Part shown: piece after piece, positions 7,527 to 32,000 of the stretch
Numbering within the stretch: the stretch's first letter is position 1
How the letters are laid out: every line of letters starts with the position of its first letter
NCBI RefSeq assembly: GCF_000015805.1
Contig: NC_009073.1
Span: 1,320,001 to 1,352,000, forward strand
DNA length: 32,000 bases
Direction of reading: 5' to 3'
Source of the DNA: Pyrobaculum calidifontis JCM 11548
Lineage (GTDB): Archaea > Thermoproteota > Thermoprotei > Thermoproteales > Thermoproteaceae
Position numbers and translations under genes: made by a program
The notes under the pieces: generated by a model
Database searches by the model: none
Told to the model about the DNA's origin: nothing
The model's input: the letters and a program-made list of their open reading frames with translations, nothing else

Positions 7527-7620
7527 GGGCCCGTAGCTCAGCCTGGATAGAGCGGCGGCCTTCTAAGCCGTAGGTCGTGGGTTCAGGCAACGCCGCCCAA
7601 AAATCCCATCGGGCCCGCCA
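7527..7620 (+). tRNA. tRNA-Arg (anticodon TCT) with a 16-nt intron in the T-loop; CCA encoded
   Basis: Manual cloverleaf: acceptor GGGCCCG/CGGGCCC, D arm GCTC-AGCCTGGATA-GAGC, anticodon arm GCGGC-CTTCTAA-GCCGT (TCT at 7562-7564), variable AGGTC. The T stem GTGGG/CCCAT closes only if 16 nt (about 7586-7601, GGCAACGCCGCCCAAA) are removed from TTCA^AAT. Discriminator G, then CCA at 7618-7620. TATA CTTTTAAA lies about 24 nt upstream. Confidence 0.85.
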
Positions 7621-12832: not shown

Positions 12833-14190
12833 AGCTCCACCTCCAGTTGCTCTTCTTTAAGTTTTAAGTAGCGGTCTGTCACGAAGGGGTAGCCGTACAC
12901 CTTCCACCACTTCACAATCACGTCGAATACCTCGGGCCTCATTATTATGGGCGGCGGCCTGAGGCCCTCCATTATTATGCCGCGGATAAAGGAGCCGCTG
13001 AACTTCTCAGGCTTGTCTCCCACAAGCGGCTTGTCTAAGTCGCTCCCGTAGTAGGTAATCTCGTCGGCCTTGGGGCTATAGGCGAATTCGCCCAAGTTGA
13101 CTGGGAGGATCTTGAACCCCTTGTCTGTCTCATGCGGAGGCTCGTTTAGGCCGTAGCTGGGGAGGCCCTTGGTCCAGAGTATCTGCGTGGCGTAGGGGTC
13201 GTAGTAGTCGCCCACGGCGGCGTGGTCGCGGCCGAACATGTGGTGAGTGCAGCCGAGGTTCTGCCTAATCACTGCGTGGAGCAGGGACTCCAGTGGGTTG
13301 CCGTACCTCATGTCCCACAGAGTCATGGTGACCACATGCCTGTCGGGGTGGAAGTAGCCGAACTTGTTGAGGGCCTCGTGGGCCTCGAGGATGGCCTCGT
13401 CCAAGTAGTCGCCGGGCCTCTTGGCGCCTATAATGGCGTTTACCAGCACCGCGTCTCCCGGCCTAGTGGCCCCCGCGACGAAGAGCGCGTGCTTCATAAG
13501 GGCCTCGTGGCCCCGGTGGGGCACGTTGCGCGTCTGGTGCGCCACAACGATGGTCCACCCCTTCTGCCTTATGTACTCCCTGGACTTCTGCGGTGGGTAC
13601 CAGAACCTGTCGTAGGGCTGTCTAAACTTCGGCGGATTTACCACGTAGACCCTCCCAGCGACGAAGTTGGGTTTCAACTGTCTGTATATCAGCCAGCCTG
13701 GGTGCTTTTCGTCAAACCTCTTCCTAACAACCTCCTTATTCCTCTCAGGCGTGCCGAATACCCTATCGGCGAACGTCTTCCTGTCCTCTACCCTGTATAT
13801 CTCCTCTATCCTCTCCACAACAGCGAAGGGCCTGCCCTTGAGCCTAAGGCAGAGGCCGTCCCCCTCCTTGACGCCGGCGGCCTTGAGGTCCTCGTCGGAG
13901 AGGTCGAGGACTATGGGGTATGGGAATATCCACCCGTCGAGGAGCCGCCTCTCCTCGAGCACCCTCTCCACCTCGTTTCTTGTCATGAACCGGTCCAGCG
14001 GCGAGAAGAAGCCGTAGGCAATCGACATGATCTCTCGGTACACATTCCTAATGGGAGTCCCGGCGGGGTCCAGCGTCGGCTTTATATCTACGCAGGGGAG
14101 CCCCTCCACCATCTTCGCCGCCTTGTCTCTATCCTCTACCACGTTGTACACGAGCCTGCCCCCGTGGGGCGGCGGCGTTTCGAACTTCAT
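12829..14190 (-). CDS. sat: sulfate adenylyltransferase (ATP sulfurylase)
   Basis: 453 aa. N-terminal PPHGGRL, nucleotidyltransferase HxxH motif in QTRNVPHRGHEALM, and GRDHAAVG, the canonical ATP sulfurylase motifs. Confidence 0.95.
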   Translation of the reverse strand: MKFETPPPHGGRLVYNVVEDRDKAAKMVEGLPCVDIKPTLDPAGTPIRNVYREIMSIAYGFFSPLDRFMTRNEVERVLEERRLLDGWIFPYPIVLDLSDEDLKAAGVKEGDGLCLRLKGRPFAVVERIEEIYRVEDRKTFADRVFGTPERNKEVVRKRFDEKHPGWLIYRQLKPNFVAGRVYVVNPPKFRQPYDRFWYPPQKSREYIRQKGWTIVVAHQTRNVPHRGHEALMKHALFVAGATRPGDAVLVNAIIGAKRPGDYLDEAILEAHEALNKFGYFHPDRHVVTMTLWDMRYGNPLESLLHAVIRQNLGCTHHMFGRDHAAVGDYYDPYATQILWTKGLPSYGLNEPPHETDKGFKILPVNLGEFAYSPKADEITYYGSDLDKPLVGDKPEKFSGSFIRGIIMEGLRPPPIIMRPEVFDVIVKWWKVYGYPFVTDRYLKLKEEQLEVEL

Positions 14191-17194: not shown

Positions 17195-19078
17195 TTAGTC
17201 GATTATGTGTATTACTGGGGAGGTTCTGAAGCTCCACTGGCCGGTCTTGGGGTCGCGTCTGACGTGTGTGAATACGTGCCAGTTGTCCTCGTCGATGTAG
17301 GGGTAATCGGCGTTGAAGTAGTAGCCGCGGCTCTCCTTGCGGTTCATCATGGAGAAGACCACCGCCTGGCCCACTATGAGGCGGTGATAGACCTCCCACA
17401 CGCGGAGGAGCTCGTGGAGGCTGGCCGCGGCGGCGAAGCGGAAGTCCTCCTCCAACATCTTCAACAGCTCCCAGGCGCGGCCCAGCATGTACATATTGGT
17501 GGTGTAGAAGGTACCCCAGCCCGCCGCGTATTCGTCCATGATCTTCTGAAGCCTTGTCAGTAGCTGGTACCAGTTTAGGTAGTTGGGGTGTATCTCAAAC
17601 CAGTTGGTCAAGTTGGGCGGCATCTCCGGCGTGGTGGTCAACGGCTTGAGTTTGTGGTACCACTCCAGCGGCCTGTACACAATCTCCTTGTATCTCTCAA
17701 TGGTGTCGTTGCTCACCACCGGCTTGTAGTCCTTGGCCTGGGTCAAGACGTATCTAGCCGCAGACTTGCCCGCGATTCTACCCTCTGTGAAGGAGCCGCT
17801 GGAGAACTTGTGGCCAGACGCCCCCACGGTGTCGCCGGCGCCGAAGAGGCCCTCCACAGTCAACATGCGGTTGGGGCCCCACTTGTACTCAGGCGGCGCA
17901 ATGTCCGGCGGCCCGGAGGCCCACATGCCTGCCGACGAGCCGTGGCTACCCTGTTGGTAGGGCTCGGTGGGCAGTAGCTCAGAGGGCGTCCTCTGCGGGT
18001 GTATGTTCTGGCTGGCCCAGTATATCACCTGGGTGGGTGTCATGTCTAAGTAGTCCTCAAAGAGAACTTTGAGGCTCTCCTCGTCTGGGAGCCTCTCTTG
18101 CGTCTGCATTATGTCGGGCCCACGGCCCTCCTTCAAGTTCTGAATAGTGACCCAAGTCCTTATGGGAGTCGGCGTGGGCCTGGCCCACGCGTAGTCGTAG
18201 AAGATCTTGGCCAACTCCGCCTTTGCCTCGTCTGGGAGAGGCTCCCACTGCTTGCCCTTGACGTCAGTGGAGCGCATCTTGAGCAGGAGGTAGGGGAAGC
18301 CCACGGGGCCGTAGGCGTCTTTGAACCGCACTACCACAAGCCTAAATTCAAAGTTCACAGTCTCGGCCCCGGCCAGGAGAGGTATGGCGTATGCGCTTCC
18401 GCTTGCCCAAGTGGGGTACCACGCCCTCCCCAGGCCCTCGCCGACGCTACGCGGCCTGTACAAAAGCGACGTGCCGCCCGCGGCCACGATCACCGCCTTG
18501 GCCTTAAAGACGTAGAAGGTGCCGTCTCTCACGTGGAAGCCCACCACGCCCGCAATCCTGTTGGGCCTCTGCTCATCTAGGAGCGGGTGTGTGACAAAGA
18601 CCCTCTCGTAGACCTCGTCGGCGGACTTTCTACAGGGCTCGGCTATAATCGCCTTGTAGGACTCCCCGTGGATTGGGTGCTGCCATCTGCCGGTTCTGAG
18701 GTACTTCCCAGTCTTGGGGTCGCGCCAGATGGGCAGCCCCCACATGTCGAAGAGCTTTATGGTGGAGGTCATGTGCCTCGCTATGTCGTACACGAGGTCT
18801 TCTCTGACCACGCCGAGTAGGTCGTTGCGCACGTAGCGGACGAACTCCTCGGGCTTGGGGTCCTCTGGGTCCTCGCTGAAGACGCCTAGGTTAGTGGCGC
18901 TGAGGCCCATCCCCACTGCGCCGCTCTTCTCAGTGTTGGCCTTCTCCACGAGGGTCACCTTGCACTTGCTCCTGCACCAGTACTTGGCCTCAAAAACTGC
19001 GCCGCATCCCGCCATTCCGCCGCCTACCACCAAAATGTCAGTCTCGACGACCTTCGTGGGGAAGTGGAGCGCCGACAT
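17195..19078 (-). CDS. aprA: adenylylsulfate (APS) reductase, alpha (FAD) subunit
   Basis: 627 aa. N-terminal FAD fold ILVVGGGMAGCGA. Fumarate-reductase-like flavoprotein with a length typical of AprA. Starts 1 nt after the aprB stop. Confidence 0.95.
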   Translation of the reverse strand: MSALHFPTKVVETDILVVGGGMAGCGAVFEAKYWCRSKCKVTLVEKANTEKSGAVGMGLSATNLGVFSEDPEDPKPEEFVRYVRNDLLGVVREDLVYDIARHMTSTIKLFDMWGLPIWRDPKTGKYLRTGRWQHPIHGESYKAIIAEPCRKSADEVYERVFVTHPLLDEQRPNRIAGVVGFHVRDGTFYVFKAKAVIVAAGGTSLLYRPRSVGEGLGRAWYPTWASGSAYAIPLLAGAETVNFEFRLVVVRFKDAYGPVGFPYLLLKMRSTDVKGKQWEPLPDEAKAELAKIFYDYAWARPTPTPIRTWVTIQNLKEGRGPDIMQTQERLPDEESLKVLFEDYLDMTPTQVIYWASQNIHPQRTPSELLPTEPYQQGSHGSSAGMWASGPPDIAPPEYKWGPNRMLTVEGLFGAGDTVGASGHKFSSGSFTEGRIAGKSAARYVLTQAKDYKPVVSNDTIERYKEIVYRPLEWYHKLKPLTTTPEMPPNLTNWFEIHPNYLNWYQLLTRLQKIMDEYAAGWGTFYTTNMYMLGRAWELLKMLEEDFRFAAAASLHELLRVWEVYHRLIVGQAVVFSMMNRKESRGYYFNADYPYIDEDNWHVFTHVRRDPKTGQWSFRTSPVIHIID

Positions 19079-19079
19079 A

Positions 19080-19562
19080 CTACTTCGCCTGCTTAGCCTT
19101 TATTATACTACCCACGATTCTCACGGGCTGCGCCGGGCGTGGAAGCTCCTTAAAGCCCAAGAACTCGGGGTTGTCCTCCAGCGCGAGGAGCTCCGAGTCT
19201 AGGTCGGGCCTCTCGGGGAAGTCTAGCGCGCCCTTCGCCGAGCCCCAAGGGGTGGTGCGTATGGGGGAGGCGAACTCGTACACCGTTCCGTCTCTGTACA
19301 TTACGCGCCAGTAGATTATGTTCTTCTTGGTATCTCTCACAACGCCTATCCGGGCGCCCAGCGGGATAAAGTCGCTGTATCCTCTCACCTCCACCGCGTG
19401 TTCTGGGCAGTACTTGACGCAGTTTAAACACTCGGCACACGACACTGGGTCAGCGTTGTAGGCCTTCCTTATCTTGGGGTTGTAGTGCATGTTGTCTGCC
19501 GGGCATATGTCTACACACTTGCCGCACCCCTTGCACAGAGAGGCATATACAAATGTAGGCAT
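19080..19562 (-). CDS. aprB: adenylylsulfate (APS) reductase, beta (2x[4Fe-4S]) subunit
   Basis: MPTFVYASLCKGCGKCVDICP ... CAECLNCVKYCP, two ferredoxin-type clusters plus the long C-terminal tail typical of AprB. I prefer ATG 19562 over the track start 19580, which would lie on the TATA box. Confidence 0.9.
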   Translation of the reverse strand: MPTFVYASLCKGCGKCVDICPADNMHYNPKIRKAYNADPVSCAECLNCVKYCPEHAVEVRGYSDFIPLGARIGVVRDTKKNIIYWRVMYRDGTVYEFASPIRTTPWGSAKGALDFPERPDLDSELLALEDNPEFLGFKELPRPAQPVRIVGSIIKAKQAK

Positions 19563-19580
19563 GTCCCCACCCCTCTGCAC

Positions 19581-22546: not shown

Positions 22547-23137
22547 ATGGCGCGGATTATATTAGTAGCAGTGCCCGGGGTGGGGAAGAGCACGATTTTG
22601 AAGTTTCTAACTGAGCGCAGGAGAGACGTCCAAGTGGTAAACTACGGCGACGTGATGCTCGAAATCGCCAAGGCCCGCTTCGGCATCGCCAATAGGGACG
22701 AGATGAGGAAGAAAATCCCCCTGGAACAGTACAGGGAGGTCCAGAGGGAGGCCGCGGAGAGAATCGCCCAGATGCAGGGCCACGTGGTGGTGGACACCCA
22801 CGCGTCGATAAAGATAGCCGGGGGGTACTACCCAGGCCTACCCCACCGCATTATCACGCTCATGAAGCCGCACGCCATTGTGTTAATAGAGGCGGACCCG
22901 CAGGTGGTGCTAAAGCGCAGAGCCAGCGACGCCACTAGGCCCACGAGGGACGTGGAGACCCCCGAAGACGTGGAAAGGCACCAAGAGGCCAACCGGCACT
23001 ACGCCTACGCGGCCTGCGAGGCGGCGGAGTGCATCGTCTACATAATCGACTTACGCAAAGTGCCAGAGACGCGGCCCTTTGAACACGCAGAGTACGCCGC
23101 GGGCAAGCTATCCGAGCTCATAGACGCCCTCGGCTGA
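22547..23137 (+). CDS. adkA: archaeal-type adenylate kinase
   Basis: 196 aa. N-terminal P-loop VAVPGVGKST. The size and layout (P-loop NMP kinase of about 195 aa, IDLRKV-type C-terminus) match the archaeal AdkA class. Confidence 0.75.
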   Translation: MARIILVAVPGVGKSTILKFLTERRRDVQVVNYGDVMLEIAKARFGIANRDEMRKKIPLEQYREVQREAAERIAQMQGHVVVDTHASIKIAGGYYPGLPHRIITLMKPHAIVLIEADPQVVLKRRASDATRPTRDVETPEDVERHQEANRHYAYAACEAAECIVYIIDLRKVPETRPFEHAEYAAGKLSELIDALG

Positions 23138-23417
23138 CGGTCTTCCACAACTCTCTCAAAAGAGCCGCCACCTGCCCCAGCGGCTTCTCAGTCTTGTAAA
23201 ACACGGCGAGGTACTGCACAGCCCCGTCGTCGACAAGTATACAGGGGCCGCACAGCTCAGCAGCCACGTCGCCAATGGGCCTCCCCCCGTACGTGGCAGG
23301 CAACTTGACGACTCCCCCCTCGGCTATTACCAACGCCTTTAGATTGCAGAGGCAGACGAGTTCAGCAAAAACTTTTTCAAAAAACTCCCTGGCGTTTTCT
23401 ACCCGGATCTCCTCCAC
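23118..23417 (-). CDS. small hypothetical protein coupled to the dsrM-like gene (possibly Roadblock/LC7-like)
   Basis: 99 aa. GTG 23417 overlaps the dsrM-like TAG by 1 nt. The KALVIAEGGVV ... ILVDDGAVQYLAVF pattern is reminiscent of Roadblock/LC7-type small alpha/beta proteins; this is a weak, unverified impression. Confidence 0.4.
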   Translation of the reverse strand: MEEIRVENAREFFEKVFAELVCLCNLKALVIAEGGVVKLPATYGGRPIGDVAAELCGPCILVDDGAVQYLAVFYKTEKPLGQVAALLRELWKTVSRGRL

Positions 23418-24181
23418 TATCCCCTCAGCTTCGTCAGTATATATCCGTAGAGCCTAGTGGGGGCGCTCCAGAGGGTGGGCATGGCCAAGAAGGAGAATGG
23501 GTGCACCATTTTTCCAAAGGGCACGTAGGCTATGAAGAGCATGGCCAACGCCGCGTGAACCTTAGTGACCACGTCCGCCTCGGCCATCTTCTCAACGCCA
23601 GCCACGGGATTCCCCAAGAGGACGTTCTGCAACCACGGAGACACAGTCTCCATGTAGTTGGGGTGCAAGACGAGGGTCTGCACATTGCCAAGGCCCACAA
23701 TTGCGAGGAGGAGGACTAGGGCAAACCAGTCGTCTAGAAAGCTCAGCTTCCGCACGTCTGGCCTAACGAGCCTCCGCACGAGGAGGAGGACCAGCCCTAT
23801 GAACGCCGCAATGCCCGCCGCCCCGCCCACATACAGGGCTATGGCCTTGTGCACCTCCTTCGGCATCCCGAAGTTCTCCGGGGGGACGATCATGGAGAGG
23901 TGGCCGAGGAGCGCGATCCAGATGCCCCAGTGGAATAGGAAAGACCCCACCTGCAAGAGGCGGTCGGACATGCCGAGGTTGTAGAGCACGAAGATCCTCT
24001 TGAGCACCTCGCCGAGCCTGTCGCCGAAGCCCCACTTGTAGCCCAGCACCTGTACTGAGTAGAGGCCCGTGAGGTCCGGCGCCCTGAGCCACCCGGCGAA
24101 TTTGTACAAAACCCCAGCTATGAACAGCGCCAGAGATATGTAAGGCGCTACGCCAAATACAAATAAATCAAGTGGAGACAT
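23417..24181 (-). CDS. dsrM: DsrM/HmeC-like membrane di-heme cytochrome b (NarI family)
   Basis: 254 aa, about 5 TMs. Helix II H-x9-H (HWGIWIALLGH) and helix V H-x17-H (HAALAMLFIAYVPFGKMVH) reproduce the NarI heme-ligand spacings. Confidence 0.8.
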   Translation of the reverse strand: MSPLDLFVFGVAPYISLALFIAGVLYKFAGWLRAPDLTGLYSVQVLGYKWGFGDRLGEVLKRIFVLYNLGMSDRLLQVGSFLFHWGIWIALLGHLSMIVPPENFGMPKEVHKAIALYVGGAAGIAAFIGLVLLLVRRLVRPDVRKLSFLDDWFALVLLLAIVGLGNVQTLVLHPNYMETVSPWLQNVLLGNPVAGVEKMAEADVVTKVHAALAMLFIAYVPFGKMVHPFSFLAMPTLWSAPTRLYGYILTKLRG

Positions 24182-24200
24182 AGGAAGATTGGGAGTGGGG

Positions 24201-24220
24201 CTTATAATCTGTTATTCCAC
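24201..24220 (-). promoter_or_regulatory. dsrM-like promoter: GTGGAATAA element + TATA
   Basis: The minus strand reads GTGGAATAA-CAG-ATTATAAG. The first base of the element lies 39 nt from ATG 24181. Confidence 0.6.
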
Positions 24221-24228
24221 ATTCACGG

Positions 24229-24666
24229 TTAATACCTCTTCTCCATGCACTTGCCCAGCTGCTTTAAGAGAGAGACGAGGTAGCCCAAGCCTCTCTGCAC
24301 GTCTGGGTCCCTAAGCGCCGCCAGTAGGCCCATTAGGCCAATTGGCTTTTCCACCTCCGCAACGGCCACGGCGGTGGTTAAGCAGTCCAGCTTTGAAGTA
24401 TCTTGCGACATGTTGACCGCGGCGGTTAGGGCCACCTCCTGCAACTTGGCGACCTTCTCTATGAAGCCCGGCGTGAGCAGGCCCTCGGTTATAAAGCGTA
24501 ACGTAGTGGCCAACTGGAGCAAGTCGTCCAACACGCCGCTCCTCTTGAACTCCCACAGCGTCCTCACCAAGTCGCGGAGGACGTCTATCCGCTCGACGAT
24601 CTCTGCGAGAGCCTCCTGCGTCTTAGGAGACTCCAACGCCTTTAAGAGCCTCTCCTCGGTACTCAT
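24229..24666 (-). CDS. DUF1641-family protein
   Basis: 145 aa from ATG 24666, which overlaps the sqr-like stop (ATGA at 24663-24666). The C-terminal PIGLMGLLAALRDPDVQRGLGYLVSLLKQLG matches the DUF1641 hallmark. That family is commonly encoded next to FAD-dependent SQR/NDH-2-like oxidoreductases. Confidence 0.65.
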   Translation of the reverse strand: MSTEERLLKALESPKTQEALAEIVERIDVLRDLVRTLWEFKRSGVLDDLLQLATTLRFITEGLLTPGFIEKVAKLQEVALTAAVNMSQDTSKLDCLTTAVAVAEVEKPIGLMGLLAALRDPDVQRGLGYLVSLLKQLGKCMEKRY

Positions 24667-25799
24667 AGCCCACACCTAACCGCGCTCCATATGGAGAAAT
24701 TAGTCAAATCTTTTAGCCTCATCATGAACTTATTGCTTGGCACGGGGTAGAGGGCGGGGCCGTCGTAGTTCCAGCTCACCTGCGTAGCCTCCTCTGTCCC
24801 CGTCAAAATGAAGCATATGACCCTGCCGTTGTATACAGAGTCTGCGTGGCCGAACTCCATATCCTCATATATCCTGTCAGCCACAACCTCGGACTGGAAG
24901 TGCGCCACGCTGCCAGCCTTAGGCACGGCCAAATTGGTGGTATCGCCTATCGCGTACTCCACTCCGTTGCCCCCGGCGATCTGGAGAGTGTACTTATCCA
25001 CGGGGACCCAGCCCCCCTGGTCCACCAGTCCCGAGTTAAAGGCCACCTCTGCCGCGGTGTGCTTAGGCACCACGATAATTAAGTCGCCCTTCAACGTCTC
25101 GGGGCCCACCACCTCCCCCTCCCTCACCTCCTTTACCTCGAACTTGGTCCTATACTCAATCCCCCTATTCCTAAACTCCTCCTCCAAGAACTTGTTCACA
25201 TTGGGCTGCGCATGCAGGTGCGGCGCCACCGTGGTAAACACTATTTTGACGTCCTTCTTCCGCCCAGTCTTCATCAACACGTCGTCGAAGTAGAAGAGGA
25301 ACTCGTAGGGGGCAACGGGGCACTTAAAAGGCGTCGAGGCAACGGAGAATACCAAGGTCCCCTTAGCAAATTTAGAGAGGGCTTCCCTCAGCGCCTTGGC
25401 CCCCTCGTAAGTCCAGAAAGTGTGCCACACCTTTTTAAACCCGGGAAAGTGGTCCGTCTTAACCACCGCGCCCGTGGCCAAGACGAGGTAGTCGTACTGA
25501 ATCTCAGACCCATCCCCCAGAACCACCTTGCGGTTTTTCACGTCTATTTTGGTGGCCGGCTTTTTCACCAAGTTCACAAGTGGGTGTAGCACCTTCCGCA
25601 CGGGCCTAAACATCACTTCGCTGGGCAACTCCTTAAACGGGACGTATAGGAACCCGGGCTGGTAGACCACGTTCTCCTCCGGCTCTACAACTACGACCTC
25701 CAGCTCCCCCTTCTTCACCTTTGCAAACGCCTTAGTTGCCAACTTATTCGCAGTAAACGCGCCGCCGACTCCCCCTCCCACTATTACCACCCTCCGCAT
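24663..25799 (-). CDS. sulfide:quinone oxidoreductase-like FAD-dependent disulfide oxidoreductase
   Basis: MRRVVIVGGGVGGAFTANKLA dinucleotide fold. Two candidate redox Cys in SQR-like contexts (TPFKCPVAPYEF and GRVICFILTG), plus an IGDTT FAD motif. ATG 25799 is preferred; the track start 25811 would lie about 6 nt from the TATA. Confidence 0.8.
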   Translation of the reverse strand: MRRVVIVGGGVGGAFTANKLATKAFAKVKKGELEVVVVEPEENVVYQPGFLYVPFKELPSEVMFRPVRKVLHPLVNLVKKPATKIDVKNRKVVLGDGSEIQYDYLVLATGAVVKTDHFPGFKKVWHTFWTYEGAKALREALSKFAKGTLVFSVASTPFKCPVAPYEFLFYFDDVLMKTGRKKDVKIVFTTVAPHLHAQPNVNKFLEEEFRNRGIEYRTKFEVKEVREGEVVGPETLKGDLIIVVPKHTAAEVAFNSGLVDQGGWVPVDKYTLQIAGGNGVEYAIGDTTNLAVPKAGSVAHFQSEVVADRIYEDMEFGHADSVYNGRVICFILTGTEEATQVSWNYDGPALYPVPSNKFMMRLKDLTNFSIWSAVRCGL

Positions 25800-25816
25800 G
25801 CCAGCACGCAATGAGA

Positions 25817-25837
25817 AATTTATACAACTTATTCCCT
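25817..25837 (-). promoter_or_regulatory. sqr-like promoter: AGGGAATAA element + TATA
   Basis: The minus strand reads AGGGAATAA-GTTG-TATAAATT. The first base of the element lies 38 nt from ATG 25799. Confidence 0.5.
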
Positions 25838-25883
25838 AGTCGCTGTATAATAAGGCAAAAGTTTATTCGAAAGCAATTTTGAA

Positions 25884-25906
25884 CAAAATTAAAATTAAAA
25901 TATATT
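25884..25906 (-). terminator. T-tract terminator region after the dsrK-like gene
   Basis: The minus strand immediately downstream of the TAA (25917-25919) reads ATATTTTAATTTTAATTTTGTTC. Archaeal termination typically occurs at oligo-T runs. Confidence 0.4.
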
Positions 25907-25916
25907 TCAGGGAGCT

Positions 25917-27401
25917 TTAAACGACTATGGCCTTGTATACCAGGTCCATTAGCCCGGAGTAGGTTATGTTTTTGCCGTACTCCTTGTTTAAGTGGGGGAT
26001 TGTGTGGCTCAGCTGGGCTTTGCATATGGCGCAGGCCCTGACCACGTGGTTTGCGTTGACCTTCAAGGCGTCTTCGTACCAGTTCTTGGCGTATTGAATC
26101 CTCAGCGGCAGAAGCTCGTCGGTCAGCAGGCCCCCTCCGCCGCCGCAGCACCACGTCTTCTCTCTGTTGTTGGGGCTCTCCACGTAGTTCTTAACCACGT
26201 GCCGAATTATGAAGCGTGGCTCCTCCGTCAAGTCGCCGCCGCGGGCGTAGTTGCAGGAGTCTTGGAAGGTGTAGACGACGTCGCCGTTGCGGGAGGGGTC
26301 CAGCTTCAGTTTGCCGTTTTTAATGGCGTCTACCACTAGGTGGAAGACGTGCATAGTCTTTATGCCGTGTTTCTCCAGCTCTGGCCCAGTGTAGTTCTTA
26401 AAGGCGCGCCACCCGTGGCCGCACTCCCCCGCAATTACGTACTTCACCTTGAGCCTGAGCGCGGCGTTGACGGCCTTCTGGCCTATGAACTTCATGTGGC
26501 GCTCTGAGGCAAATAGGCCGAAGTTTGCCAGCTCCGCCATCTCTGTGCTAAAGGCGTACTTAATCCCCATTAGGTGGAGGAAGAGCATGTACCCCTTGAG
26601 AGTCTCCATGTTTGTAAAGAAGTCGGCCGAGGGCGGAATGAGCAAGGCCTCCGGCCAATCGGGGTCGCCGGGCTGGACCTCCTTGACCGGCTGATCCGCC
26701 TTGTACTTAACCAGCTTGTTCTGGTCGTCGCGGTATATGAAGTACTCCACCTCGACGCCCTTCTCCTCCTTGATCTCCCCCGCGGCAAAGGTTATGGACT
26801 TTATAACCGCCATAGGCTTCATGCCCAAGTTTGTGCCCGTGCGCTCCACCGCGTCAATGACTGTGGCAATGTACTTCGAGATTATGCCGGCCTCGTACAT
26901 GACCTCTCTAACAAGCCTAGTGATGTCCGCCTGATCTATGCCGAAGGGGCAGGAGTAGGCGCACTTTCTACACTCCAGGCACTGGTAGTAGTACGTGTAT
27001 ATCTTCTCCAACTGCTCCTCCGTGAGCTTCACCGCCCCCACGGCTTTGCCGAACAGCTTCCCGCTCAGGGACTCGGCCTTAATTACAGACCTAATGAGCT
27101 CCGCCCTGCCCACGGGGGAGTTGAAGATGTCCTTAGTCTGGACATATGTGGGGCAGTTGTCTAGGCATATGCCGCAGTGGACGCACACCTCCATGGCCAT
27201 TTTCACGTTCCGGTTCCGTGAAACCTCCTCCCTCAGCCGCCGCCGTATGTGCTCCAGGGGGTCCTTAGGAAGCTCAAGACCCACCCTGGAGTGAAGAACC
27301 TTGACCTGGTCCTCCTTGGCTTTAAAAGGCTTGATGTTGGAGGTATCCCCCATCTTAAACGCCGCGGCTCCATGTTGGGCCGCCTCATGCGCCACAGCCA
27401 T
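25917..27401 (-). CDS. dsrK: DsrK/HmeD/HdrD-like iron-sulfur protein with CCG domains
   Basis: 494 aa. Two ferredoxin-type motifs (CVHCGICLDNCP, CLECRKCAYSCP) followed by Cys-rich CCG-type regions, including the terminal WCCGGGGG. This is the HdrD/DsrK architecture. Confidence 0.85.
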   Translation of the reverse strand: MAVAHEAAQHGAAAFKMGDTSNIKPFKAKEDQVKVLHSRVGLELPKDPLEHIRRRLREEVSRNRNVKMAMEVCVHCGICLDNCPTYVQTKDIFNSPVGRAELIRSVIKAESLSGKLFGKAVGAVKLTEEQLEKIYTYYYQCLECRKCAYSCPFGIDQADITRLVREVMYEAGIISKYIATVIDAVERTGTNLGMKPMAVIKSITFAAGEIKEEKGVEVEYFIYRDDQNKLVKYKADQPVKEVQPGDPDWPEALLIPPSADFFTNMETLKGYMLFLHLMGIKYAFSTEMAELANFGLFASERHMKFIGQKAVNAALRLKVKYVIAGECGHGWRAFKNYTGPELEKHGIKTMHVFHLVVDAIKNGKLKLDPSRNGDVVYTFQDSCNYARGGDLTEEPRFIIRHVVKNYVESPNNREKTWCCGGGGGLLTDELLPLRIQYAKNWYEDALKVNANHVVRACAICKAQLSHTIPHLNKEYGKNITYSGLMDLVYKAIVV

Positions 27402-27417: not shown

Positions 27418-27439
27418 GTATAAATAAAGCTTATTCCAC
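27418..27439 (-). promoter_or_regulatory. dsrK-like promoter: GTGGAATAA element + TATA
   Basis: The minus strand reads GTGGAATAA-G-CTTTATTTATAC. The first base of the element lies 38 nt from ATG 27401. Confidence 0.6.
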
Positions 27440-27708: not shown

Positions 27709-28320
27709 GAGGGGCTTCTCAACCTTCTCCACCTTCTCCAGTGGGAGGCAGGTCCCTCCCAGGGAGATTCTGCTACACACGTAGACCTCCACGGCTTTGC
27801 CGCACACCTTTTTCACAAGCTCGGCCACTTGGGAGAGTCTGTCGCCCATCATAAATATGACGTACACGTCGGCTCTCACGCTCTTGAGAACCTCCTCGTC
27901 GACGTGGGGGTAGGAGAGGAGGGCCACGTGGCGGAGGGCGACGCCGTCGGTTAGCTCCACTCCGCCTAGGGCTGAGGCGGCGGTGAAGCTGGACACGCCT
28001 GGGACAATCTCGCACGGCACGCCCGCGGCGCGGGCCATGCGGCAGATCTGATGCGCCCTCCCAAACACCGTGGGGTCGCCGTTCTTCAACAACACCACGT
28101 TCTTCTCCCTGGCCACCTCAAGCAACCTAGCCACGACCTCGTCGTGGTCCTTATGCCTATGCCCAATCTTCACCCTCTCGGCCTGGGGGGCGAACTCCTC
28201 CACCACCTCCTCTGGCACCAAGTCGCCGTAGGCCACCACGTCTGCCCTCTGCAGAATTTTGACCGCCTTAAGCGTCAAGAGCTCCTTGTCCCCCGGCCCG
28301 ACGCCCACTATGTAGAGCAC
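27673..28320 (-). CDS. tetrapyrrole (corrin/porphyrin) methylase, uroporphyrinogen-III C-methyltransferase-like
   Basis: LYIVGVGPGDKELLTLKAVKILQRADVVAYGDLV is the classic N-terminus of the SUMT/precorrin methylase superfamily. 215 aa. Overlaps the dsrN 3' end by 13 nt. Confidence 0.7.
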   Translation of the reverse strand: MLYIVGVGPGDKELLTLKAVKILQRADVVAYGDLVPEEVVEEFAPQAERVKIGHRHKDHDEVVARLLEVAREKNVVLLKNGDPTVFGRAHQICRMARAAGVPCEIVPGVSSFTAASALGGVELTDGVALRHVALLSYPHVDEEVLKSVRADVYVIFMMGDRLSQVAELVKKVCGKAVEVYVCSRISLGGTCLPLEKVEKVEKPLLVIVRKCWSPP

Positions 28321-29645
28321 AACCTCTCCAACACGTTGTAGGTGTAGGGGTGTATGTGGAGGTACTGGGCGTGCATGTTGTATTTCACAATGCCGTCGAC
28401 GCCTCCGCCAATCCCCACGCCTCTCTCCAGCTTAATCGCCGGCTCCACCCTCTCCCTCAATATGAGCTTGGAGTAGTGGAACTCGTGCCCCTTCAGCTGG
28501 GCCCCCACCGGCGCTATGGGGGTCTTCCCCACTACGCGGCCCCAGGCGTACCCCTTCCCTACCGGCCTCTTAAGCACAACAGCCACGCCGTCTACCACGT
28601 CCACCATCTCGTACTCGCCCCCCTCGTACACCACCGAAGAGGCCATGTACATGAGGCCGCCGCACTCGGCGTACACCCTCCCCCCAGACTCCACGAAGCG
28701 CCTCAGCGAGGCCCTAAACGGCTTGTTCCTCTCCAGCTCCTCTGCCAAAACCTCTGGGAACCCCCCTCCCACGTACAAGACGTCTACCTCGGGCACGGCC
28801 TGGTCCTCAAGAGCGTTGACGTACACCACCTCGCCGAGGGCCGAGGCGTATTCAAACACCTCGGGGTAGTAGAAGTTGAAAGCCCTGTCAAACACCACCC
28901 CGATTCTACAGCCGAGCCTCCGGGGCTGCGGGGGGTCCACCACCTCTACGTCAAGATCCCCGGCCTCCCTTGCCACCTCTAACACCTCGTCGAAGTCTAT
29001 GTAGGGGAGGACGTGGCGCTCCAACACGTGGAAGAGCCCCCCATCCCCCCTCTCGGCCACTGGGACTAGGCCCAGGTGCCTATACGCGAAAAACTGGGCA
29101 ATTTTCTCGCTCCTCGGGATAGCCCCCAACAGCCTCACCCCCTCCTCGGGGATAGACTTGGCCAACTTCTCCACTTGGCGGCCCACCACGTTGGTCAAAA
29201 TAACCCCTGCGATGTTCACGCCGGGGTCAAAGGCCTTGAGCCCCCTCACCACGGCCCGCAACGTCCTATTCACCCTCTCCCCGTTCAACACCAGCACTAC
29301 GGGGGCCTTGAGCAACTTAGCCACCTGCGCGGTGGACCCCAGCTCGGAGACCCCGTCCACTGAGTCGTATAGCCCCAAGACGCCCTCTACCACGGCAACG
29401 TCAAAGCCGGCTGAGTATTTTACAAACCTCTCCAAGACCCCCCTCTCCCCCATTAACACCACGTCGAGATTTCTGCTGGCGGCCCCAGCCGCCGCGCCGT
29501 GGTACGAGGGGTCTATAAAGTCGGGGCCGACCTTGAAGGGCGCCACCCTCAGCCCCCTGCGGCGGAGGCCATACATCAAGCCCAGCGCCGCTATGGTCTT
29601 CCCAGAGATGCCCTTAAAAGAGGAGACGACGAGGCGGGGTACCAC
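28308..29645 (-). CDS. dsrN: cobyrinic acid a,c-diamide synthase homologue (DsrN-type siroheme amidase candidate)
   Basis: 445 aa. N-terminal ATP-binding SFKGISGKT ... FKVGPDFIDP and C-terminal glutamine amidotransferase Cys (YAECGGLMY), the CbiA/CobB architecture. It begins 15 nt after dsrC, the usual DsrN context. Confidence 0.8.
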   Translation of the reverse strand: MVPRLVVSSFKGISGKTIAALGLMYGLRRRGLRVAPFKVGPDFIDPSYHGAAAGAASRNLDVVLMGERGVLERFVKYSAGFDVAVVEGVLGLYDSVDGVSELGSTAQVAKLLKAPVVLVLNGERVNRTLRAVVRGLKAFDPGVNIAGVILTNVVGRQVEKLAKSIPEEGVRLLGAIPRSEKIAQFFAYRHLGLVPVAERGDGGLFHVLERHVLPYIDFDEVLEVAREAGDLDVEVVDPPQPRRLGCRIGVVFDRAFNFYYPEVFEYASALGEVVYVNALEDQAVPEVDVLYVGGGFPEVLAEELERNKPFRASLRRFVESGGRVYAECGGLMYMASSVVYEGGEYEMVDVVDGVAVVLKRPVGKGYAWGRVVGKTPIAPVGAQLKGHEFHYSKLILRERVEPAIKLERGVGIGGGVDGIVKYNMHAQYLHIHPYTYNVLERLCST

Positions 29646-29660: not shown

Positions 29661-29996
29661 TTATACGCAGCCCGTGGGCTTAGGCGCCCCGGCCACTTTA
29701 CACGCGCCGTGCGCTGGCCCAGAGGGGAACAGCTGGTAGATCTGCTCAAGGGTGAAGCCTGTCTCCTTTGTCAACATCTTAATCGGCGGGCAAGAGCCGT
29801 ATGTCTCCCAGTACTCCCTGAGATACCTAATTACCTTCCAGTGGGCGTCTGTCAGCTGCTGTATTCCCTCAAGCTCCCTGGCCATCCACTCGGCTATTTT
29901 CTCATCCCAGTCCTCTGTGTTCTGCAAGAAGCAGTCCTCGTCGAGGATCACCTTTTTACCATCCACTGTGTACTCTCCTGGACATTTAACCGGCAT
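29661..29996 (-). CDS. dsrC: DsrC (TusE/DsrC/DsvC family) with both C-terminal-arm cysteines
   Basis: 111 aa. The C-terminus ...PSGPAHGACKVAGAPKPTGCV has a penultimate Cys and a second Cys 10 residues upstream, the functional DsrC signature. Confidence 0.95.
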   Translation of the reverse strand: MPVKCPGEYTVDGKKVILDEDCFLQNTEDWDEKIAEWMARELEGIQQLTDAHWKVIRYLREYWETYGSCPPIKMLTKETGFTLEQIYQLFPSGPAHGACKVAGAPKPTGCV

Positions 29997-30015
29997 AGAC
30001 CCACTTGGGCCTGTG

Positions 30016-30035
30016 CTTAAAAAGATTTATTCCAC
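30016..30035 (-). promoter_or_regulatory. dsrC operon promoter: GTGGAATAA element + TATA
   Basis: The minus strand reads GTGGAATAA-A-TCTTTTTAAG. The first base of the element lies 39 nt from ATG 29996. Confidence 0.6.
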
Positions 30036-30058
30036 TAATCTCGGAAAGACTTCCTCCA

Positions 30059-30077
30059 GTGGAATAAGGTATATATA
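30059..30077 (+). promoter_or_regulatory. dsrE-like promoter: GTGGAATAA element + TATA
   Basis: The plus strand reads GTGGAATAA-GG-TATATATA. The first base of the element lies 38 nt from ATG 30097. Confidence 0.6.
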
Positions 30078-30096
30078 CATGCCCCAAGTCGCCCAC

Positions 30097-30447
30097 ATGC
30101 CGGATAAAGTGGCCTTCTTAGCCACAATGCCGCCTGCAGATGGGCCTAGAATTTCTACAATGCTCGGCTACGCCTTGGCAGCCGCCTCTATGGGATTCGA
30201 GGTGTTGATTTTCTACACCTTGGACGCAGCCCACATAGTAAAAAAGAAAGTCTTTGAAAAACTAGACCCGCAGATTAGGGAGAGGTTTAAGCAGTGCATG
30301 GACATGGGGTGTAAGATGTGGCTGTGCTCCTCGGCCGCGGCCACCTTCAACATAAAAGAGGACGAGGTAGTGGAGGGAGTCAAGATAATGGGCATAGCGA
30401 GCTTCTACGAATACGCGGCTGAGGCCAAGGTTGTGCTCACTTGGTGA
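30097..30447 (+). CDS. DsrE/DsrF-like sulfur-relay family protein
   Basis: 116 aa from ATG 30097 (alternative ATG 30079 abuts the TATA). KVAFLAT ... FEVLIFYTLDA ... MWLCSSAAATFNI ... IMGIASFYEY follows the DsrE/F fold pattern. Three Cys in KQCMDMGCKMWLC. The track start 29752 lies antisense inside dsrC. Confidence 0.65.
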   Translation: MPDKVAFLATMPPADGPRISTMLGYALAAASMGFEVLIFYTLDAAHIVKKKVFEKLDPQIRERFKQCMDMGCKMWLCSSAAATFNIKEDEVVEGVKIMGIASFYEYAAEAKVVLTW

Positions 30448-30928
30448 CCTCCACGGCGTCTACGTATCCAAACTTGTTTTTTAACTCTGCCAAGTACTCC
30501 TCCGCCCTTTCTCTAATTAGCAAGGCCGCGATCTGGGCCCAGTTGAAGAAGCCCCACTCGAGGGGGACTGTGAACTTCACTGAGAGGAACCCGTAGAGGC
30601 CGGACTCGTCGCATTTCACTGGGAATAGAGACATGGCGTAGTTGAGCCTGTACCCAGGCCAGGGGAGGTCCTCCACCTCGCCCAGGAGAGTGGTCTCCCC
30701 CTCCGCGTCGGCGCAACCAGCGGTGGTAAAGACGCGTATGTTCAAGTCTATGAAGCCCATCTTGTACCTACTCCCGTCGAGGACCACCAAGGCGTAGAGG
30801 TTGACGTCTCGGACCCAGAGGTGTAACTTTTCCGAGGGGTCTTGAAAGACGAGGACTTGGGGAAACTCCCGGAGGTAGACGGGGCGGGAAAAAGACCTTA
30901 TCTTTTTTTCAAACTCCTCAAATTCCAT
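30437..30928 (-). CDS. hypothetical protein directly downstream of and overlapping dsrB
   Basis: 163 aa from ATG 30928 (MEFEEFEKKIRSF...). Overlaps the dsrB stop (30918-30920) by 11 nt. No family recognised. Confidence 0.5.
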   Translation of the reverse strand: MEFEEFEKKIRSFSRPVYLREFPQVLVFQDPSEKLHLWVRDVNLYALVVLDGSRYKMGFIDLNIRVFTTAGCADAEGETTLLGEVEDLPWPGYRLNYAMSLFPVKCDESGLYGFLSVKFTVPLEWGFFNWAQIAALLIRERAEEYLAELKNKFGYVDAVEVTK

Positions 30929-32000
30929 CTCTGAGCCGCGGGTAGACGTCGCCGCGGGATCTGTAGGTGAGGAACGTCCTGGCAAACTCAGGCACTCTCT
31001 GGTAGTAGTCTCTAACCTTGCCGAAGCCCAGCAGATCGAGGAACTTAGTCCACCCCACTCTCTCGATGAAGTCGGCGAGTCTCTCGCCGGGCTGGGCGTG
31101 CTGCCTCCACGTCTCTACTATGTGCTTTACCACGGCCACTATCTCCTCATACCTCGGCGGATTTGCGGGCAACCACGGTATCAACACCCGGCCCAGCCTG
31201 GGGCCAGTGCCAGTGTTAGACATCTTGCCGCCCACGAGTATTGACACGCCCACGTTTTCTGGGTCGTAGTCAAAGGCGTCGCAGTTCTCCTTACACCTGG
31301 CGCAGTTGATGCACTTTTCCCCAATTAGGACGAGCTTTACCTTGTCCCCCTCCCTCCTCAGAGAAAGGGCGCCGGTGGGGCAGACTTGGACTAGGAATAT
31401 CTGCGACTCCGGCAACTTGGCCAAGGCCTTAGGCGGCGGGAGACACATGGGGAGGACCTCCTCGCGTATCTTCGGCGGGGCGCCCCACTGGCCCACTATT
31501 GCTATATCTATAGCTGTGCCGCCAGCGCACATGGCCGGGCAACCGCTGACGAAGACCCTGAGCTTTGCGGGAAGCGGAATCTCGCCAGTGAAGTAGGGCT
31601 TCAGCGCATCGCCGAGGGCCTTGCTAATACTTGGGCTATCCACCACCGCGGTGGTGCACGTCAGATATGCAGTACAGCTGTTGATTCCCCACAAGGCGCC
31701 GCCCCAGCCTCCCACTGGGAAGCCCAGCTTCTCCACCTCCTCCTTGATCTTAAGCGCCTTCTCCAGAGAGTCTGTCAGAAACTCTATGTTGCCTGCCATG
31801 GTCACCCTCAGCGCGCCTATGCCCAACTTGTCCGCAATATCGGCAAATTTGTCCAACGTATCCGCCGAAAGCCTCGCGTTAGGCGGCAACGCGACTTTCA
31901 CAGTGAATATCCTCTCCCCAGTGGCAGAGACGTGCTCAATTATACCATTGCCATGGAACTTCCTATCCACCCACTTTCCATAGTTCCTGAGTATGGCCTC
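30918..32000 (-). CDS. dsrB: dissimilatory sulfite reductase beta subunit, N-terminus beyond right window edge
   Basis: Siroheme/FeS-binding Cys pattern (NSCTAYLTCTT, SGCPAMCAG) and an inserted ferredoxin motif (CINCARCKENC), with overall colinearity to DsrB as I recall it. The frame stays open upstream of the track GTG 31970 to base 32000 (EAILRNYGKWVDRKF...), so the gene is 5'-partial here. Confidence 0.9.
   Translation of the reverse strand, partial: EAILRNYGKWVDRKFHGNGIIEHVSATGERIFTVKVALPPNARLSADTLDKFADIADKLGIGALRVTMAGNIEFLTDSLEKALKIKEEVEKLGFPVGGWGGALWGINSCTAYLTCTTAVVDSPSISKALGDALKPYFTGEIPLPAKLRVFVSGCPAMCAGGTAIDIAIVGQWGAPPKIREEVLPMCLPPPKALAKLPESQIFLVQVCPTGALSLRREGDKVKLVLIGEKCINCARCKENCDAFDYDPENVGVSILVGGKMSNTGTGPRLGRVLIPWLPANPPRYEEIVAVVKHIVETWRQHAQPGERLADFIERVGWTKFLDLLGFGKVRDYYQRVPEFARTFLTYRSRGDVYPRLRDGI

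Follow-up and report, generated by a model that had tools for sequence, protein, structure and literature searches.

Why the genes of a DsrMK-type module should stand apart, with a flavoprotein gene and a gene of the DUF1641 family between them, is the question raised by a sulfur locus of the hyperthermophilic archaeon Pyrobaculum calidifontis JCM 11548. The locus lies in a stretch of 32,000 nucleotides (nt) of contig NC_009073.1 (positions 1,320,001 to 1,352,000, forward strand), which is called the window here and in which all coordinates are counted. In the window, a dsrK-like and a dsrM-like gene flank a gene for a flavoprotein of the sulfide:quinone oxidoreductase type (SQR; gene sqr) and a DUF1641 gene. 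The initial annotation of the window had offered three readings of this arrangement: one composite complex, two quinone-reactive systems that share regulation, or an Hdr-like module unrelated to DsrC. Our analysis favors the second, and we give a probability of about 0.6 to an SQR-DUF1641 sulfide:quinone complex and a separate DsrMK that are co-regulated in one sulfur regulon. The five genes in question, found on the minus strand at the coordinates first annotated, are listed below.

25917 to 27401, minus strand: dsrK-like gene, its own transcription unit, for a cytoplasmic iron-sulfur protein of the HdrD/DsrK type (494 aa).
24663 to 25799, minus strand: sqr, for an SQR-type flavoprotein with flavin adenine dinucleotide (FAD) and a short C-terminal domain of one helix (378 aa).
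24229 to 24666, minus strand: DUF1641 gene (145 aa), with an ATGA overlap with sqr, translationally coupled.
23417 to 24181, minus strand: dsrM-like gene, for a NarI-type membrane dihaem cytochrome b (254 aa).
23118 to 23417, minus strand: orf99 (99 aa), with a 1-nt overlap with the dsrM stop.

The sequence reads ctATGAgt where the sqr stop and the DUF1641 start overlap, and gaTAGTGg where the dsrM stop overlaps the GTG start of orf99 by 1 nt; both overlaps, and a T-rich tract after dsrK, are as initially described. Profile searches also agree with the family labels given before to the DsrK-, SQR-, DUF1641- and DsrM-like open reading frames (ORFs), the Roadblock suggestion for orf99 excepted. 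Mechanically, the sqr ORF extends to a TTG at 25811 and the DUF1641 ORF to a GTG at 24675; the 378-aa form of the former is 100% identical to and co-extensive with a P. calidifontis database protein (the DsrK-like protein likewise has a fully identical database counterpart), and orthologs of the latter start with MS(T/A/S)E.

Gene order in relatives was surveyed on contigs encoding homologs and in one metagenome scan, and the following arrangements were found.

P. aerophilum and P. ferrireducens: sat-DUF6955-dsrM-dsrK-sqr-DUF1641, where dsrM directly neighbors dsrK, as in the canonical arrangement.
P. oguniense and two related assemblies: dsrM after dsrC, about 6.4 kb from dsrK; dsrN-methylase divergent from dsrK-sqr-DUF1641.
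A metagenome-assembled genome (MAG) with 74% SQR identity: dsrK-sqr-DUF1641, and within 10 kb no gene of the NarI type.
T. tenax: sqr-DUF1641 between two dsrAB pairs and dsrC; dsrM about 7.5 kb off.
Four other Thermoproteaceae-like contigs with 61-66% SQR identity: sqr-DUF1641 without dsrK beside it; one of these contigs is without any dsr gene.
P. islandicum: dsrM-dsrA-dsrB-x-dsrC; a DsrK (57% identity) 2 kb off on the other strand.

The only constant unit in every Thermoproteaceae relative examined is sqr followed by DUF1641, usually overlapping, and dsrM takes four placements among the relatives. In P. islandicum, dsrM lies directly upstream of dsrA, and neither sqr nor DUF1641 is found in the 21 kb around its dsrK. 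Since dsrM and dsrK are apart in such varied relatives, including P. islandicum with no sqr nearby, their separation is common in Thermoproteaceae and is independent of sqr. In the window, the parting of dsrK from dsrM represents local variation in gene order, within a lineage that gives each of these genes its own promoter, and adjacency of dsrM and dsrK is an unreliable criterion in Thermoproteaceae. The sqr-DUF1641 pair was also found in other phyla at 37-40% SQR identity, as TusA-sqr-DUF1641 in Haloplanus, as DsrE-TusA-sqr-DUF1641 in Moorella and as a plain pair in Caldinitratiruptor, whose partner was recognized only by an iterated hidden Markov model (HMM); no DsrMK-type gene is present in the stretches shown for these three. 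As minor features of the survey, P. ferrireducens has a called 177-aa ORF on the opposite strand between dsrK and sqr, and P. islandicum (contig L095, 7093-16721) has a further adjacent pair of a NarI gene (302 aa) and a CCG gene (534 aa).

The promoters of the window separate the same genes into three transcription units and link them to two more genes of the locus, as follows.

27419 to 27439, minus strand: dsrK promoter, with the element GTGGAATAA at 27431-27439 and then the TATA box ctttatttata, which precedes the ATG by about 18 nt, a leaderless-type spacing.
25818 to 25837, minus strand: sqr promoter, with the element AGGGAATAA at 25829-25837 and the TATA box ttgtataaat.
24201 to 24220, minus strand: dsrM promoter, with the element GTGGAATAA at 24212-24220 and the TATA box agattataag.
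About 25883 to 25905, minus strand: T-rich tract ttttaattttaattttgtt after the dsrK stop, read on the sequence.
30027 to 30035, minus strand: promoter element of dsrC.
30059 to 30067, plus strand: promoter element of the DsrE-like gene.

The common element, RKGGAATAA, occurs in 5 copies in the 32 kb, compared to 0.64 expected, and none of 100 shuffles reached 5. All copies sit 2-4 nt upstream of a TATA box, which in turn lies about 20-25 nt from the start codon. The initial annotation had assigned the element to three units; dsrK, sqr and dsrM do carry it, and the count was too low, as it also marks dsrC and the DsrE-like gene. It is absent at the other 31 of the 36 gene starts inspected. A generic B recognition element of the organism, as which GGAATAA was also considered, is ruled out by these 31 starts, many of which have clear TATA boxes and no element. 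A related element (GTTAATAA, GTGGNAAYAA) was found at the same position in orthologous promoters of other species: upstream of sqr, dsrC, dsrE, dsrA and dsrN in T. tenax, upstream of sqr, dsrM and dsrK in P. aerophilum and P. ferrireducens, and upstream of the corresponding genes in two MAGs. At orthologous sqr promoters the equivalent position holds GTTAATAA or GTTAACAA. Oligo-T tracts serve as terminators in archaea, and the tract after dsrK is likely one of them. Thus, the reading of two quinone-reactive systems that share regulation gains ground from the three promoters, the T-tract and a motif that, of 36 starts, otherwise occurs only at dsrC and dsrE. The motif supports one small co-regulated sulfur regulon of dsrC, dsrE, dsrK, sqr-DUF1641 and dsrM-orf99, which would be testable. 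T. tenax has a TrmB-family gene next to dsrC, and a regulator of this type is a candidate.

Three further observations concern this element. The sat promoter (14120-14190, minus strand) has a near match, TAGGAATTAAG, directly before a TATA-like box. The aprB and dsrN starts in the window showed no such element on inspection. Between 30027 and 30067, the divergent dsrC and DsrE-like promoters carry GTGGAATAA as an inverted pair 23 nt apart, each with its own TATA box, and this intergenic pair looks like a shared bidirectional control region.

The flavoprotein resembles SQRs in fold and redox cysteines and differs from most of them at its C-terminus. The sqr product matches PF07992 (Pyr_redox_2) and PF21706 (FCSD_central), and its best NCBIfam match is the type III SQR model NF049943, at 276.1 bits and below the cut-off of 525; this is an exception-level model for a selenoprotein subtype, and missing its cut-off is a weak test. 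An AlphaFold2 model from a 43-sequence alignment (mean predicted local distance difference test, pLDDT, 95) has the two-Rossmann-domain FAD fold of the SQR type, and an N-terminal GGGVGG motif is present. When this model was searched with Foldseek, human SQOR was the top match (template modelling score, TM, 0.89), and Aquifex SQR (0.86), flavocytochrome c sulfide dehydrogenase, A. ferrooxidans SQR (0.81-0.83) and NDH-2 (0.69-0.75) were also found. Both redox cysteine contexts noted initially hold up: C160 (FKCPVAP) and C329 (VICF) align to the SQOR redox cysteines in VKCAGAP and TSCPLVTG, they are invariant together with F330 across the 43 family members, and both cysteines are kept in metagenome homologs wherever the ORF spans them. 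F330 is equivalent to a quinone-site Phe of Caldivirga SQR (PMC9666304).

Most SQRs have two amphipathic C-terminal helices which bind the membrane and shape the quinone channel, and removal of one or both from the Caldivirga type III SQR gave a soluble, inactive protein, as described in PMC9666304. The window flavoprotein has no transmembrane segment, its tail after Cys329 is about 49 residues long, compared to 76-92 in long-tail relatives, and in the model a single kinked helix (357-374, with K363, N367 and W371 conserved) takes the place of the usual two. Compared to the type III SQRs of Caldivirga maquilingensis (SqrC) and Methylacidiphilum, it shares the best NCBIfam match, both redox cysteines, the Phe after the second cysteine and the sulfur-carrier genes associated with the family, and it differs by its 378 aa, its short tail with one helix and its DUF1641 gene partner, the subtype being assigned by profile match. 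Characterized type III SQRs oxidize sulfide (PMC10205796, PMC11143483).

The DUF1641 protein resembles subunits that are known to carry quinone to soluble enzymes. It matches PF07849 over its C-terminal residues 103-139 (66.8 bits; cut-off 21), is predicted to be all-helical and has no transmembrane segment. It aligns over its full length with YjlC/Ncp of B. subtilis (9snk, 9pxk) and at its C-terminus with HucM, and a profile of 24 homologs searched against PDB chains found, at modest scores, Ncp (9snk, E 2.1e-6; 9pxk, 5.7e-6), HucM (7uus, 2.3e-6) and ForE1 (8rqz, 7.6e-4). In the sequence alignment, Phe108 of Ncp corresponds to M112, with R119, R125 and K135 near it; the position is F, W or Y in most orthologs and lies inside an invariant G-L-x-G-L-L ... 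R-G-L-G motif. By analogy, the protein is a predicted quinone-conduit and membrane-docking scaffold. The precomputed Pfam label for PF07849 reads 'HMP' and not 'DUF1641', which suggests a renaming in a newer Pfam release.

The scaffold role of DUF1641 was recognized between 2021 and 2026 with three partners, formate dehydrogenase, Huc hydrogenase and NDH-2 (PMC8808070, PMC13524794). Menaquinone binding and the formate:menadione activity of ForC, a soluble formate dehydrogenase, require ForE (PMC8808070), and HucM is the scaffold of the Huc hydrogenase. DUF1641 scaffolds serve both iron-sulfur (Fe-S) enzymes (ForC, Huc) and flavoproteins (PMC13524794). The NDH-2 enzyme Ndh, which is without the residues that usually interact with the membrane, assembles with Ncp (YjlC) in a 4:4 complex; four Ncp chains make up a tube that has a hydrophobic lumen and conducts menaquinone, and it docks to the membrane via the DUF1641 head through Phe108 and flanking basic residues (PMC13524794). 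In that study (Kropp et al., Nat Microbiol 2026), DUF1641 proteins are reported in 5,479 genomes and the Ndh-Ncp combination only in Bacillota, and SQR is used as a phylogenetic outgroup and not otherwise (PMC13524794). No SQR partner for DUF1641 is described in the literature searched, which did not cover the supplementary neighborhood table of Kropp et al.

The closest parallel to the window pair is Ndh-Ncp (YjlD-YjlC; 9pxk, 9snk; PMC13524794). In both, the gene of a flavoprotein with two dinucleotide-binding domains, quinone-reducing in Ndh and predicted to be so in the window, stands beside a DUF1641 gene for about 140 aa, which in the window lies downstream of the flavoprotein gene with the ATGA overlap. 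The two DUF1641 proteins align over their full length, neither protein of the pair has a transmembrane segment, and the part of the catalytic subunit that binds the membrane at the C-terminus is reduced; going by the sequence alignment, a hydrophobic residue may also stand at the Phe108 position (M112 in the window). In contrast, the partner here is an SQR with redox cysteines and predicted sulfide chemistry, whose model is closer to SQOR (TM 0.89) than to NDH-2 (0.69-0.75), and the host is a hyperthermophilic archaeon instead of a member of the Bacillota. ForCE (PMC8808070; 8rqz) and Huc-HucM (7uus) likewise have a DUF1641 subunit beside a catalytic subunit without transmembrane segments, required for menaquinone coupling, and the family profile of the window protein matches ForE1 and HucM. 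These systems differ in that the electrons come from the Fe-S clusters of a molybdoenzyme or of a [NiFe] hydrogenase, compared to a flavoprotein here, and ForE and HucM are longer (176-188 aa) than the window protein (145 aa).

Whether a short tail goes together with a DUF1641 partner was counted across the metagenome loci. A pattern scan with the family alignment gave 80 loci, in which ORFs were called, DUF1641 was sought with an iterated HMM and the tail after the second cysteine was measured; only scan loci with at least 650 nt downstream were counted, which left 56 informative loci. Adding hand-picked loci inflates the contrast between short and long tails, and they were left out of the Fisher count. 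A DUF1641 gene lies directly downstream in 22 of the 56. Tails fall into a short group (48-60 residues) and a long group (62-106 residues, with one outlier of 232), and the gene is directly downstream in 12 of 20 short-tail loci and in 10 of 36 long-tail loci (Fisher's exact p=0.024). A strict rule by which every short SQR tail would come with a DUF1641 partner was dropped; there is an enrichment only. The partnerless short-tail subgroup ends in ...YWxTVPxGRV, the partner-bearing short-tail proteins outside Thermoproteaceae in ...YWL(S/T)ARGLL and those of Thermoproteaceae in ...IWSxxRCGL. Partnerless loci typically hold TusA, DsrE-like and TusE/DsrC-like genes, and this neighborhood matches the type III SQR-TusA-DsrE2 operon of Methylacidiphilum (PMC10205796), which is modestly up (about 1.7-fold) in sulfide-adapted cells (PMC10205796).

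Family membership, fold, conserved pairing and the reduced C-terminus thus make a complex of the SQR-type flavoprotein with the DUF1641 protein the most likely arrangement, by analogy with the solved scaffolds, and the quinone-transport role of DUF1641 (PMC8808070, PMC13524794) would explain the pairing of the two genes without DsrMK.

The separated genes would form the DsrMK module. The DsrK-like protein has no transmembrane segment, matches PF02754 (CCG, 37.9 bits) and PF13183 (42.9 bits), and carries two ferredoxin-type [4Fe-4S] motifs (CX2CX2CX3CP; CVHCGICLDNCP at 73-84 and CLECRKCAYSCP at 141-152) and the C-terminal CCG signature C383-X34-C418C419G-X37-C457XXC460; identity to its orthologs is 82-88% within Pyrobaculum and 79% for T. 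tenax. The DsrM-like protein matches PF02665 (NarI) at 137.9 bits and TIGR00351 (narI) at 86.8 bits (cut-off 105.55), and its orthologs are 68-72% identical. It has five hydrophobic segments, with His84 and His94 in segment 2 and His209 and His227 in segment 5 at NarI-like spacing, and by analogy these four are candidate haem-b ligands. As in the minimal DsrMK/HmeCD module, a NarI-type dihaem membrane protein is combined with a CCG protein of the HdrD kind, and dsrB(A), dsrC and a dsrN-like gene share the locus; the window differs in that the genes are not adjacent, both proteins score below the DsrK and DsrM cut-offs and Pyrobaculum has two DsrK groups. The reading of an Hdr-like module unrelated to DsrC is unlikely, as DsrK is the best family and dsrB(A), dsrC, a dsrN-like gene and dsrE are in the locus. 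The two DsrK groups are of about 490 aa and about 470 aa. Proteins of the first are 77-100% identical to the window protein, adjoin sqr in five Pyrobaculum lineages and are present in T. tenax; those of the second are 52-58% identical and comprise the dsr-locus copy of P. islandicum and second copies in P. aerophilum and P. oguniense. This second paralog group leaves some doubt on the link to DsrC. In one P. aerophilum-like MAG, dsrK is split, with 46 and 336 aa called (L001, 6182-7716), and intact on a near-identical contig (493 aa; L002, 6421-7902); the split is either an assembly error or a frameshift.

In the mechanism that we propose, three separately promoted transcription units would form one sulfur regulon with two distinct quinone-linked modules. 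The first would be DsrMK, in which the NarI-type dihaem membrane protein and the cytoplasmic CCG Fe-S protein would, as is usual for DsrMK, link the menaquinone pool to DsrC, and whose genes would simply not have been kept together in Pyrobaculum. The second would be built on the SQR-type flavoprotein, which would use Cys160, Cys329 and FAD to oxidize sulfide to protein-bound or polysulfane sulfur. With a single C-terminal helix in place of the two of most SQRs, it would therefore gain access to quinone by way of its DUF1641 partner. As judged from Ncp, ForE and HucM, this partner would be an oligomeric tube of helices that docks to the membrane and brings menaquinone to the flavin site. The sulfane sulfur would be passed on, probably to TusA, DsrE or DsrC-type carriers encoded nearby. 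We infer the physical SQR-DUF1641 complex, the conduction of quinone, the substrate and the direction of the reaction. Taken alone, the SQR-DUF1641 complex would probably add a fourth class to the DUF1641 quinone conduits, and with it such a conduit would for the first time serve a sulfur enzyme and occur in archaea. If this is true, the conduit principle extends to sulfur metabolism, to archaea and hyperthermophiles and to many environmental lineages (the 22 of 56 metagenome loci), and it explains the quinone access of 'short' SQR homologs that are routinely annotated only as FAD-dependent oxidoreductases.

Several observations weigh against this reading of two co-regulated modules. The best family of the DsrK-like protein, by far, is NF045796 (DsrK), matched over the full length (residues 38-493), and its 334.5 bits are below the cut-off of 400; the DsrM-like protein scores 47.5 bits with NF038037 (DsrM), under the cut-off of 300. 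These NCBIfam equivalog cut-offs are bacterial-trained, and despite the low scores we uphold the DsrMK naming because of the locus context and of comparative work in which DsrMK of Thermoproteales is treated as bona fide (PMC10504309). A single C-terminal helix is also found in type VI SQR and in A. ambivalens SQR, which nevertheless bind the membrane (PMC9666304), and the metagenome loci include 8 short-tail homologs without a downstream DUF1641 gene and 10 long-tail homologs with it. The AlphaFold2 monomer of the DUF1641 protein is poor (pLDDT 50), which might be expectable for an interwoven oligomer. Co-regulation by one factor is deduced from the promoter motif alone. The dsrK-sqr-DUF1641 order is kept in five Pyrobaculum lineages, and the DsrK of about 490 aa is present in every named genome with sqr-DUF1641; this co-occurrence and adjacency hint at a link closer than co-regulation, and the co-occurrence, being within one family, may reflect shared ancestry. 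Finally, the host has reductive-type Dsr genes, and there the oxidative direction of the SQR is one that we presume.

The last point leads to the alternative that survives best, though we consider it unlikely: the flavoprotein could be SQR-like in fold only and, with DUF1641, act reductively, with menaquinol as donor and with polysulfide or a persulfide or trisulfide on a protein as acceptor, or act on TusA-, DsrE- or DsrC-persulfide, as an accessory of the Dsr system. The position of the gene within a reductive-type dsr locus would fit such a role, as would the TusA, DsrE and DsrC-like carriers that neighbor the family in many taxa and a C-terminal helix in Thermoproteaceae that is unlike that of other partner-bearing homologs. 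The score below the curated SQR cut-off (276 vs 525) would fit as well, but the missed model is selenoprotein-specific, so this carries little weight. Moreover, both redox cysteines and F330, the counterpart of a quinone-site Phe of Caldivirga SQR (PMC9666304), are invariant, the closest solved folds are true SQRs, and the type III SQRs that have been characterized act in the oxidative direction (PMC10205796, PMC11143483).

A composite machine, in which DsrK, SQR, DUF1641 and DsrM form one membrane-associated assembly that couples sulfide/polysulfide or DsrC-trisulfide chemistry to quinone, is very unlikely. It would account for the dsrK-sqr-DUF1641 order in P. calidifontis, the MAG with 74% identity, P. 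oguniense/arsenaticum, P. aerophilum and P. ferrireducens, for the promoter element common to all units, and for the co-occurrence of the 490-aa type of DsrK with sqr-DUF1641 in all named genomes seen, neither of them being in the P. islandicum stretch or among the matches listed. As DUF1641 scaffolds serve the Fe-S enzymes ForC and Huc as well as flavoproteins (PMC13524794), a single tube might, for example, be shared by SQR and the Fe-S protein DsrK, comparable to HucM with the Fe-S subunits of Huc. However, the order is conserved inside one genus and could be inherited rather than selected, and the pair stands away from dsrK in T. tenax and the four other Thermoproteaceae contigs and is widespread without a DsrMK-type gene beside it. 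In the window, dsrK has its own promoter, with a terminator-like T-tract before sqr, and dsrM moves freely among the relatives, independently of the other genes. Adjacent dsrM and dsrK in close relatives had been named beforehand as telling against this complex, and they were found in P. aerophilum and P. ferrireducens. In addition, we know of no quinone site in DsrK from what is established for DsrMK and HdrD. Even less probable is a variant limited to Pyrobaculum in which the DUF1641 tube scaffolds both SQR and DsrK as a cytoplasmic, membrane-docked 'private quinone pool', with menaquinone reduced at SQR and re-oxidized at DsrK, or the reverse; if it were true, sulfide/sulfane chemistry would be coupled directly to DsrC-trisulfide chemistry, and DsrM would be an optional membrane outlet. 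Just as improbable is a mobile sqr-DUF1641 cassette that landed by chance in the dsr locus, unrelated to Dsr, with the element as a local general promoter feature: the cassette does occur in unrelated contexts on two contigs (L005 and L007) and dsr gene order is highly fluid in Thermoproteaceae, but the element is strongly enriched and absent from the 31 other gene starts, even where the TATA box is clear. Related elements are found ahead of sqr and dsr genes in T. tenax, P. aerophilum and MAGs, and sulfur-carrier genes accompany the cassette across phyla.

A set of genes accompanies sqr-DUF1641 in Thermoproteaceae, namely TusA, a PF00708 (acylphosphatase) protein of about 566 aa, a small DsrE-like protein and a pyridine-nucleotide-disulfide oxidoreductase of about 465 aa with a dimerization domain (L001, 17-2336 and 10203-11606; L003, 15107-17143; L008, 4795-6210 and 10851-12778; L012-L014, 15731-19648; L015, 315-3514). 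This set may handle persulfide or polysulfide.

The last gene of the dsrM unit, orf99, encodes a small Cys-containing protein (VCLCN ... CGPC) with 13 relatives among 1.84 billion representatives, which share the pattern VCxCN...LPxK(Y/F)xGR...CGxC. A Roadblock protein had been suggested, and the profile check did not bear this out, as no Pfam family and no PDB sequence match was found even at E<=10; the Roadblock/LC7 assignment, without sequence support, was rejected. Weak homologs are present in most Thermoproteaceae dsr/sulfur loci examined (L003, 10075-10338; L008, 12889-13134; L012-L014, about 4846-5094), and in L001, L002 and L004 they lie just upstream of dsrM on the opposite strand. 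The results show that orf99 is a real lineage-restricted gene tied to dsr loci, apparently only in Thermoproteaceae, and a role of this small protein in redox reactions or in the handling of sulfur is conceivable. An adenylate-kinase-like P-loop gene (AAA_17; 22547-23137, plus strand) converges on orf99 with a 20-nt overlap of the 3' ends, and the presence of an AMP-recycling enzyme beside apr/sat/dsr genes may be non-accidental.

Upstream of dsrK lie genes for dsrB, a conserved 182-aa ORF, dsrC, a CobB/DsrN-like amidase and a tetrapyrrole methylase, and farther off in the sulfur locus of the window are aprBA, sat-DUF6955, a TauE exporter and a double rhodanese. The neighbors with coordinates are as follows.

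28308 to 29645: CobB/DsrN-like amidase gene.
29661 to 29996, minus strand: dsrC (PF04358, 119.8 bits; TIGR03342).
30059 to 30447, plus strand: DsrE-like gene including its promoter element, divergent from dsrC (PF02635, 77.8 bits).
30918 to 31970: dsrB, with dsrA beyond the window edge.
17195 to 19580, minus strand: aprBA.

The mechanical 231-aa ORF of the DsrE-like gene (29752-30447, plus strand) is over-extended and overlaps dsrC on the opposite strand. PF02635 covers only its residues 119-230, orthologs are 116 aa long, and the true start is probably the ATG at 30097, which gives 116 aa. The AprB of Pyrobaculum is without the conserved electron-transfer Trp, and the functionality of the enzyme was questioned in a modelling study (PMC2211403); this bears on the direction in which the whole sulfur locus runs.

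The 182-aa ORF (30437-30985, minus strand), without a Pfam match, follows dsrB. An ORF of about 130-180 aa recurs after dsrB, overlapping or abutting the dsrB stop, in most Thermoproteaceae dsr loci seen, at 22-40% identity (L003, 6889-7374; L006, 429-950; L013, 1805-2284; L095, 4299-4694). Rfam and tRNA scans found no RNA genes in the region itself. Elsewhere in the window, Rfam found a 91-nt tRNA at 7527-7617 (plus strand, 55.7 bits), presumably intron-containing, which ARAGORN did not report.

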